A DNA stretch of 63,715 nucleotides, filler included, from Basidiobolus ranarum (Eukaryota): assembly GCA_040143965.1 (NCBI GenBank). It is 56 parts of 56 records of this genome, joined end to end, with 100 filler letters (N's around TTAATTAATTAA, not from the genome) between each part and the next. Parts side by side here need not be neighbours in the genome. Positions count along the whole stretch, not along the records: positions 59,286 to 60,318 come from JASJQH010006744.1; 55 more parts are not named here. One strand, 5' to 3'. Each line of letters starts with the position of its first letter. Position 1 is the first letter of the stretch. The notes beneath the pieces are model-generated. The model had not been told where the DNA came from. It saw only the letters and a list, made by a program, of their open reading frames with translations, and did no database searches. Positions 59,186 to 60,254 of the stretch are shown one piece after another. The translations under genes and the position numbers were made by a program.

Positions 59186-59451
59186 NNNNNNNNNNNNNNN
59201 NNNNNNNNNNNNNNNNNNNNNNNNNNNNNTTAATTAATTAANNNNNNNNNNNNNNNNNNNNNNNNNNNNNNNNNNNNNNNNNNNNCTAACTAATATATGT
59301 CTTGGGAATAGCAGTGGGTTGCTATGTTACGGTAGAGAGTAGGTTTGCTAGGCAGCTAGGCTTGGTGTTCTGTAGGTGCTAGTGGATACTAGGCTTTATT
59401 AATAAAAATACTAGGGATAGAGATAAGAATAAACTATATGAACATTTAACA

Positions 59452-59958
59452 ATGATATGTTTATTAGATATAGGCAGTTCATCTCCATTTAGGTTCTGGG
59501 AAATATGGCAATTAAGAAAAACAGGCAATGAAAATATTAAACGAGTTCTTCAAATTATAATAGAGTCAAATAAATGTTATGAACTTCATAAATATATCTA
59601 TGAATATTATTTCTTTGGATCTGAACAACTAGATTTCATAGAATATGATAAAAAAGACAAGATTATAGATGATCTTTATAAATTATGTCTCAAATCTACT
59701 ATTGTATTTAAACAGAAATATTTTAAAGCAATGATAATATTACATTTTAATATATGCTCTAAAATAATGTTTTTCAAAAGAGATAATATAGTAAAAATAT
59801 CTACTGATAAAATAATTAACTTATCAAGATTATCAAATAATAAAAAAGTTATTTTAGAATCTTCTTACTTCTGGATGAATATAGATAATAATAAAGATTA
59901 TATAGTGAAAAATACAAAATATCTGTCTAAATTAATTACATCTTATAAAAAGTTATGA
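59452..59958 (+). CDS. AT-rich K/I/N/Y-rich ORF (168 aa), possibly the upstream part of the RNA polymerase subunit
   Basis: No introns visible; its stop overlaps the next ATG (ATGA at 59955-59958). Confidence 0.45.
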   Translation: MICLLDIGSSSPFRFWEIWQLRKTGNENIKRVLQIIIESNKCYELHKYIYEYYFFGSEQLDFIEYDKKDKIIDDLYKLCLKSTIVFKQKYFKAMIILHFNICSKIMFFKRDNIVKISTDKIINLSRLSNNKKVILESSYFWMNIDNNKDYIVKNTKYLSKLITSYKKL

Positions 59959-60254
59959 ACAATAGTATAGTTCCTGGAGATTCTGTAGGCATGATAGCTG
60001 CTCAGTCTATAGGTCAGCCTACTACCCAGATAGCTCTAAGTTCTTTTCATCAAGCAGGAACAAGTGCTGGAGAAATAGTTTATGGTTTACCAAGATTAGA
60101 AGAAATATTAAATTTAACAGTAAAAAATGTAAATTCTAGTTGTGACATATATACTAAAGAAACAATAGATTATAATAGCTTAGTGTATATGGAAATAAAA
60201 GGGTTAGGGGGGATGATAAGCACCAGAAGGTGTAATATTTATTTATCAATTTAA
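59955..60254 (+). CDS. Divergent multisubunit RNA polymerase largest subunit (RPB1/beta-prime) trigger-loop fragment, virus-like
   Basis: [29 protein letters not shown]...[11 protein letters not shown] aligns with the RPB1 motif [28 protein letters not shown]...GVPRLKEILN. Confidence 0.85.
   Translation: [99 protein letters not shown]

Follow-up and report, generated by a model that had tools for sequence, protein, structure and literature searches.

The stretch of DNA analysed here, hereafter the window, comprises 63,715 nucleotides of a Basidiobolus ranarum assembly (GCA_040143965.1). At about 59401-60206 it contains two adjoining gene pieces, and the second of these codes for the beginning of RP1c; this is the C-terminal half, with a gene of its own, of an RNA polymerase largest subunit (RP1) that is split in two. 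By family search, sequence motif and phylogeny, the segment is assigned to a split-RP1 lineage resembling nucleocytoplasmic large DNA viruses (NCLDV) and known as endogenous DNA in moss and early-diverging fungi. Our preferred explanation, which we regard as probable, is that it is an integrated relic of a member of this lineage. Published work already covers this lineage, including the split of its RP1 and its presence in genomes as methylated, dead insertions; the window piece adds one member.

The RP1c piece lies on the forward strand in an open reading frame of 99 residues (ORF2, 59955-60254), whose RP1c-like part is 59955-60206. Residues 5-70 of ORF2 match positions 68-133 of the Pfam profile RNA_pol_Rpb1_5, which is 267 positions long, with an E-value of 2.2e-18. 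At the composition of the contig, the chance probability of a 99-codon open frame is ~3e-5, and that of a 191-codon frame, such as the one found directly upstream, is ~2e-9. Among solved structures, the best matches of ORF2 are Pol II RPB1 chains (E 1.6e-13 and weaker); archaeal A'', Pol I, Pol III and bacterial beta' chains come next. The 60 Protein Data Bank matches listed include no vaccinia chain. In the alignment with Pol II, the Gln, Leu and His of the trigger-loop motif TQMTLNTFH are retained, GEP is replaced by GQP, and the Thr, Asn and Thr of the loop are replaced by Ala, Ser and Ser, a difference at four positions. These results bear out an earlier description made from the DNA alone (the sequence-only reading), which had recognised here the trigger-loop region of an RPB1/beta-prime protein, with Gln, Leu and His kept and with GQP and IALSSFH in place of the canonical residues. 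That reading also likened the loop to those of large DNA viruses, giving TQxALSSFH for poxviruses.

The closest relative of ORF2, P0001, is a complete protein of 346 residues that begins right at the trigger loop. The translation of 59961-60206 is identical to residues 4-85 of P0001 at 71 of 82 positions (87%), and the ATG at 59955, which encodes the initial Met of ORF2, aligns with Met1 of P0001; the RP1c relatives share this start Met. The two sides of the split nearly meet on the Rpb1_5 profile, in that RP1n, the N-terminal half, of a related metagenomic contig (L001) stops at profile position 66 and ORF2 of the window begins at position 68. On the profile match, the alignment with P0001 and the phylogeny described below, 59955-60206 is identified as the first 84 codons of RP1c.

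That Pol II RPB1 is the best match among solved structures would also be expected if the piece were a pseudogene, or a paralogue now in decay, of the largest subunit of host Pol I, II or III. We regard this origin as very improbable. The identity to Pol II, over ~58 residues, is clearly lower than the 87% identity to P0001; the frame begins at the trigger loop, as in the split family, and carries a loop motif specific to that lineage; and the upstream neighbour is the syntenic partner of the RP1c family, not the foot domain of RPB1. A cellular Pol II RPB1 would be a continuous gene with a canonical loop, and what is found instead is a loop with four differences, a frame that starts at this loop and an unrelated gene upstream. 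As judged from these comparisons, the RP1c piece is not a host Pol I, II or III gene.

To place the piece among polymerases, the search was extended from P0001. It returned 13 further relatives of 344-599 residues, with 38-46% identity and E-values of at most 9e-66, after which the scores fall to E 1e-34 and identities to 33% or less. Two of the 13 are UniRef entries from the moss Physcomitrium patens. The signature GQPTTQ[IM]ALSSFH, defined in the present analysis and not drawn from published work, is carried by 14 of 14 family members and also by the window, where it lies at 60012-60050 on the forward strand; its columns are invariant in the family alignment. It occurs in none of the 116 other polymerase proteins fetched, of which 97 were read to have a different loop and 19 have no match to the loose pattern, so that their loop was not read. 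A quick maximum-likelihood tree was then calculated from 43 rows hand-picked from the 130 fetched proteins, with P0078 and P0084 dropped because they lack the trimming pattern. In this tree the window piece joins P0001 with a Shimodaira-Hasegawa-like approximate likelihood ratio (SH-aLRT) support of 99, inside a 15-row RP1c clade (SH-aLRT 99) that includes both P. patens proteins. The stem of this clade is long, and the tree does not fix where the clade attaches with respect to subunits of the archaeal type and of the long viral type. Three features by which we recognise the split-RP1 lineage are present in the window piece: a separate RP1c frame that opens shortly before the trigger loop, a place in the tree in one clade with P. 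patens RP1c, and the loop signature. One of the P. patens entries, P0072 (599 residues), consists of a piece of Ty1/copia-like polyprotein fused to an RP1c copy, the copia part being judged by eye; this fusion fits the retrotransposon insertions that adjoin the moss elements.

The same data bear on possible contamination by an archaeal Rpo1C (A'') gene or by a bacterial or organellar beta' gene. The archaeal enzyme is similarly split, and the automatic name given by the Joint Genome Institute (JGI) to some family members is 'subunit A"'. However, short A''-like proteins are only 27-33% identical to P0001, compared with 38-87% within the family, and in the tree they group apart from it; the matches to bacterial beta' are limited to the trigger loop; and family members occur in P. 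patens gene models, beside RPB5, UDG and a DNA polymerase B of eukaryote/NCLDV type. Of all the explanations considered, this is the one to which we assign the least probability.

The second gene piece lies directly upstream of RP1c, at 59401-59958 on the forward strand, and corresponds to residues 33-215 of the protein P0131, as determined with phmmer and tblastn. Its frame is open from 59383, following an in-frame stop at 59380-59382, and ends with a TGA at 59956-59958; counted from the first ATG, it yields ORF1, of 168 residues (59452-59958). A HMMER search of 1.84 billion representatives with ORF1 identified six relatives at E <=0.001. The best of these, P0131, is an intact protein of 215 residues (phmmer E 3.8e-84), and is 74% identical over residues 7-191 of the query and 33-215 of P0131. 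With tblastn, residues 37-215 of P0131 align without gaps to 59419-59955, and 135 of 179 are identical (75%). Both proteins end at the same stop, after ...ITSY(Q/K)KL. The family (P0131-P0136) comprises proteins of ~215-277 residues, and in two metagenome loci, L006 (796-1584) and L007 (158-850), more distant members are found immediately upstream of RP1c. The one moss-type contig examined has no match to the family, with only 433 bp upstream of RP1c before the contig ends.

The sequence-only reading had allowed for the two frames being parts of one product, to be fused across a frameshift. A single frameshifted RPB1 is ruled out, since ORF1 shares its stop with P0131 and RP1c shares its start Met with its relatives; the boundaries of the two genes are those of the intact proteins P0131 and P0001. 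Nor does ORF1 represent the foot domain of RPB1: the family has no match in Pfam or PHROGs, and is instead the syntenic partner of RP1c. From homology and gene order, ORF1 is therefore best described as a separate conserved gene that adjoins RP1c, not as a part of the polymerase. The stop codon of ORF1 overlaps the start codon of RP1c (ATGA), which suggests that the two genes would be co-expressed in the intact element. An AlphaFold model of the ORF1 family is poor, with a mean predicted local distance difference test score (pLDDT) of 52.8, and is confident only for residues ~6-96; the N-terminal ~100 residues are modelled as a helical bundle. The best fold matches of this model are the C-terminal helical domains of MgsA-type AAA+ ATPases and of clamp loaders (Z-scores of 9-10, root-mean-square deviations of ~2.7-3.0, 94-99 residues); for helical bundles this likeness is below the trusted level, and we treat it as a lead only. 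Possibly the family corresponds to a 'U' family of Maumus 2014.

To see in what kind of element such genes reside, related loci were sought in IMG/VR. A search with P0001 alone gave no matches; with the family alignment as query, the contigs were found. A 17-kb contig (L001/L009; L009 1-17243) encodes a 392-residue RP1c, RPB2 (972 residues), RP1n (660 residues), UDG and RPB5, as well as a DUF5757 protein, a family B DNA polymerase (PF00136/PF03104) and a FLAP/XPG nuclease. Seven of these families, namely RP1c, RPB2, RP1n, UDG, RPB5, the DNA polymerase and FLAP/XPG, are among those that Maumus 2014 (PMC4083422) tabulates for moss, in the part of that paper drawn on here. Among the 13 L009 frames scanned with Pfam there was no capsid gene and no packaging ATPase or other packaging gene. 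As regards hallmarks of the Nucleocytoviricota (family B DNA polymerase, D5 primase-helicase, major capsid protein, A32 ATPase and VLTF3), the PF00136/PF03104 DNA polymerase is found on this related contig, and the element represented in the window is itself known from two gene pieces only.

This gene content also bears on the idea that the fragment derives from the RNA polymerase of a yeast-type cytoplasmic linear plasmid, that is, a virus-like element such as pGKL2. The sequence-only reading had pointed to such polymerases, and the AT-richness, the small size of the related elements and the lack of a capsid gene among the scanned frames of the 17-kb contig would all be compatible with them. 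Linear plasmids of the pGKL2 kind encode a fused beta/beta' subunit plus a small subunit, together with a protein-primed DNA polymerase. The related contig has separate genes for RPB2, RP1n, RP1c and RPB5 and a PF00136/PF03104 polymerase, so that the layout of the relatives is unlike that of pGKL2, the two being set apart here by description only. A plasmid origin therefore seems highly unlikely.

The copy in the window is incomplete at both ends. The gene of the ORF1 family lacks its 5' end, amounting to the first 32-36 codons (P0131 residues 1-32/36), and RP1c lacks ~261 codons of its 3' part (P0001 residues 86-346). The similarity of RP1c to P0001 ends at 60206, at residue 85 of 346; beyond this point the frame continues for 15 unrelated codons, to a TAA at 60252-60254. 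The flanking sequences differ from the family. The left flank (59286-59400) contains no match to P0131 residues 1-32, and in 50-bp steps its guanine-plus-cytosine (GC) content is 40-52% over the first 100 bp of the contig, falling to ~24% near 59386; compared with the other contigs of the window, its best match has an E-value of 0.03 over 28 nucleotides and is no real match. None of the frames of the right flank (60207-60318) resembles the family. No repeats or terminal inverted repeats were found in the flanks, nor any similarity to the related loci, and a search of Rfam gave no match above chance. With both genes cut off, the window copy would be a dead fragment, unable to make a working subunit, and we take it to have no function as a polymerase subunit.

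The GC content of the contig, 26.8%, is below that of all 55 other contigs of the window (minimum 30.5%), and it contains two CpG dinucleotides where 17.7 are expected, an observed-to-expected ratio (o/e) of 0.11, alongside 23 GpC. Over 59386-60206 there is a single CpG against 11.8 expected (Poisson P ~1e-4 at an o/e of 1), and the trigger-loop piece, 59955-60206, falls within the stretch that holds only this one. The other 55 contigs have a median CpG o/e of 0.085, and 48 of them do not exceed 0.2; the contig with a histone H3 gene is at 1.1. In the related loci, the CpG o/e is 0.86 for L006, 0.83 for L007 (26% GC), 0.45 for L005 and 0.42 for L001. The sequence-only reading had remarked on a single CpG in ~750 nucleotides, as in decayed transposons and unlike H3, and these counts agree with it. 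Of its broader claim, that this is a relic of NCLDV DNA, the viral type stands, with profile search and phylogeny now placing the fragment in the split-RP1 lineage; the integration in a host genome and the methylation that it also proposed are treated below as inferences.

Two observations favour integration. First, both genes are truncated, within 1 kb, beside unrelated sequence. Second, the CpG o/e of 0.11 is like that of the other contigs, among which repeats abound, and far under the 0.83-0.86 of L006 and L007, of which L007 has a similar GC content. From these we infer that the fragment most likely resides in a host chromosome, the host being the organism behind the other contigs, poor in CpG and rich in transposons. 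The intact element would have carried an RP1n that extends to the bridge helix and an RP1c that begins with the trigger loop; together the two would form the largest subunit of a multisubunit RNA polymerase encoded by the element. By homology this enzyme would also include RPB2 and RPB5, and the cut in its RP1 would fall near the point at which the archaeal A'/A'' subunits are divided. Of this arrangement, the window copy keeps only the end of the upstream neighbour (its last ~180 codons) and the beginning of RP1c (its first 84 codons). Deletion or insertions would have shortened the fragment in the chromosome, and its CpG would have been lost by the same process as in the repeats, that is, by methylation-driven change of C to T.

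Several observations, however, weigh against integration, and would be better accounted for if the fragment belonged to the same lineage without being integrated. In that case it could be a piece of a free or episomal element, active or possibly defective or rearranged, an element of some other organism in the sample, or a chimera of short-read assembly. The contig stands alone among joined contigs of ~1 kb; its flanks, of 115 bp and 112 bp, match 0 of the 55 other contigs, and it carries no host gene or transposon. When 10 proteins from L001 and L006 were searched against those other 55 contigs (~57 kb of the assembly), there were no matches. Both retained frames are undamaged, neither a stop nor a frameshift interrupting their ~270 codons despite a GC content of 24%, and ORF1 is more diverged from its relative (75% identity) than is the trigger-loop piece (87%). 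Such a difference is the pattern of purifying selection and, together with the intact frames, points to little change since the fragment was part of a working element. Intact close relatives, P0001 and P0131, exist in public data, and the GC content of the contig lies outside the range of its companions. Moreover, the element may itself be poor in CpG, and the absent parts of the genes might lie beyond an insertion rather than having been deleted. Taken together, we judge a non-integrated or foreign element to be unlikely, though it retains a substantial minority of the probability; what counts against it is the same double truncation and the same low CpG o/e.

A more specific proposition has two parts: that a Dikarya (basidiomycete-like) host was infected, and that P0001 and P0131 represent a still-active element, maybe not a giant virus but a compact replicon without a capsid and of a few tens of kb. 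As a joint statement, we consider this improbable. If its first half were true, the host would fall beyond the published range of the lineage, which comprises the moss and six early-diverging phyla of fungi; in the papers that it covered, our literature search found no report tying NCLDV insertions to rusts or basidiomycetes. Proof of a Dikarya host, or of P0001 and P0131 in an active, compact, capsid-less element, would raise the interest of the fragment.

The construction of the window determines how its other features can be used. It is made of 56 contigs of 1032-1047 bp each, ordered by size and joined by 55 identical artificial linkers of 100 bp (N44+TTAATTAATTAA+N44). The RP1c fragment sits alone on a contig of 1033 bp (59286-60318), which is preceded by one such linker at 59186-59285 and followed by another at 60319-60418; the histone H3 gene is on the separate contig that comes next. 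Because the window is a concatenation of unrelated contigs, features that neighbour each other in it carry no information on linkage, and arguments from neighbours are invalid. For annotation, the lesson is that adjacency in a concatenated window says nothing about linkage.

With this in mind, the other contigs can be described briefly. Most of them (for example 23169-23696, 26259-27230, 33152-34054 and 47943-48558) contain fragments of gypsy-like or copia-like retrotransposons and of a tnp2/CACTA-like transposase, and are strongly depleted in CpG; the translations were assigned to these transposon types by eye. A transposase-like frame has a loose likeness in the ESM Atlas to Mucoromycota clusters (score 0.90), and its contig is not linked to the RP1c fragment. 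Positions 57020-58052 hold tandem units of ~125 bp, each with a frame of 44-49 residues ending in ...GVTKTAHPSTRTTNVSLFLKTYLL; the CpG o/e there is 0.99, unlike that of most contigs. On the reverse strand at 61552-62583, a long open frame encodes a Gln/Glu/Tyr-rich protein in which QQEYPQYDM(S/G)NEAQSGGE is repeated ~8 times, with a CpG o/e of 0.45. The N-terminal 90 residues of histone H3 are encoded on the reverse strand at 60421-60690, with an insertion of one residue after K24 (KAAARKTA). This insertion is common to five of ten H3 proteins compared, four of them 137-residue proteins labelled as basidiomycete and one a 137-residue protein from JGI. The H3 fragment also has an unusual Arg66, Glu79 and Ala88, and the H3 search gave no exact match. 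These features, on contigs that are not linked to the RP1c fragment, weakly suggest a host that is probably fungal and possibly a basidiomycete.

If the integration of the RP1c fragment is confirmed, it would extend a poorly known lineage by one host and by a divergent sub-branch, the P0001 type, which shares ~45% identity with the moss type. The invariant variant of the trigger loop, in which the Glu of GEP is replaced by Gln and Thr, Asn and Thr are replaced by Ala, Ser and Ser, offers a handle on a minimal split polymerase; the conserved gene coupled to RP1c, that is, the ORF1 family, is a second handle on how such an enzyme works.

The nearest known systems are the NCLDV-like regions of P. 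patens and the endogenous elements of early-diverging fungi. Maumus 2014 (PMC4083422), in the sections considered here, describes the former and proposes the fission of the RP1 gene as a possible signature of the lineage. According to the same sections, the moss regions carry DNAP, D5, SNF2, FLAP, UDG, SSB, a capping methyltransferase, RPB2, RPB5 and TFIIS along with RP1n and RP1c, and lack capsid and packaging genes; they are silent, heavily methylated and often pseudogenised or truncated, the last in likeness to the window copy; and their RP1n and RP1c show affinity with the RP1 of iridoviruses and poxviruses. P. patens RP1c resembles the window piece in being a separate C-terminal half that starts at the trigger loop, with GQPTTQ[IM]ALSSFH, and the two fall in one clade. 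It differs in having only ~44-46% identity to P0001, the close relative of the window piece, and the moss-type RP1c (392 residues) has an N-terminal extension of ~45 residues that is absent from the window/P0001 type. For fungi, the account of Gong, Zhang & Han 2020 (PMC7017919), in the portions used here, reports endogenous 'fundsalphavirus' elements in 14 species of six early-diverging phyla, with RP1n, RP1c, RPB2 and RPB5 in their gene set. By DNA polymerase these elements are near Pithovirus, and the moss sequences are nested inside them; they are decayed insertions, sometimes adjoining retrotransposons (PMC7017919). RP1c is thus among the genes described for them, a likeness to the window that rests on the published description and on those portions of it. 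Neither of these accounts, in the parts covered, describes a free virus of the split-RP1 lineage.

Among characterised polymerases, the archaeal Rpo1C (A'') resembles RP1c in length (~390 residues) and in coming from a largest subunit that is divided at roughly the same point; the profile of the RP1c family spans the entire A'' chains, as it does approximately residues 1056-1450 of Pol II RPB1, with E-values of 1e-49 to 1e-51 (~1e-50 for A''). The archaeal subunit differs in its identity of ~30%, its canonical loop, GEPxTQMT(M/L)RT(F/Y)H, and its separate group in the tree. Pol II RPB1 is alike in that a ten-residue segment of ORF2 parallels its GVPRLKEILN and the loop Gln, Leu and His are kept; the differences are the Gln for Glu in GEP, the Ala, Ser and Ser in the loop, and the absence from the split RP1 of a foot domain and of a C-terminal repeat domain (CTD). 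The RPB1 homologue of African swine fever virus (8q3b, 8xx4 and others) is an NCLDV largest subunit that is matched across the whole RP1c profile; this match is far weaker (E 6e-25) than those to the Pol II and archaeal chains, and the viral subunit is a single protein of 1450 residues. On these comparisons, the intact gene is best understood as a minimal, split, archaeal-style arrangement of a polymerase of the eukaryote/NCLDV type.

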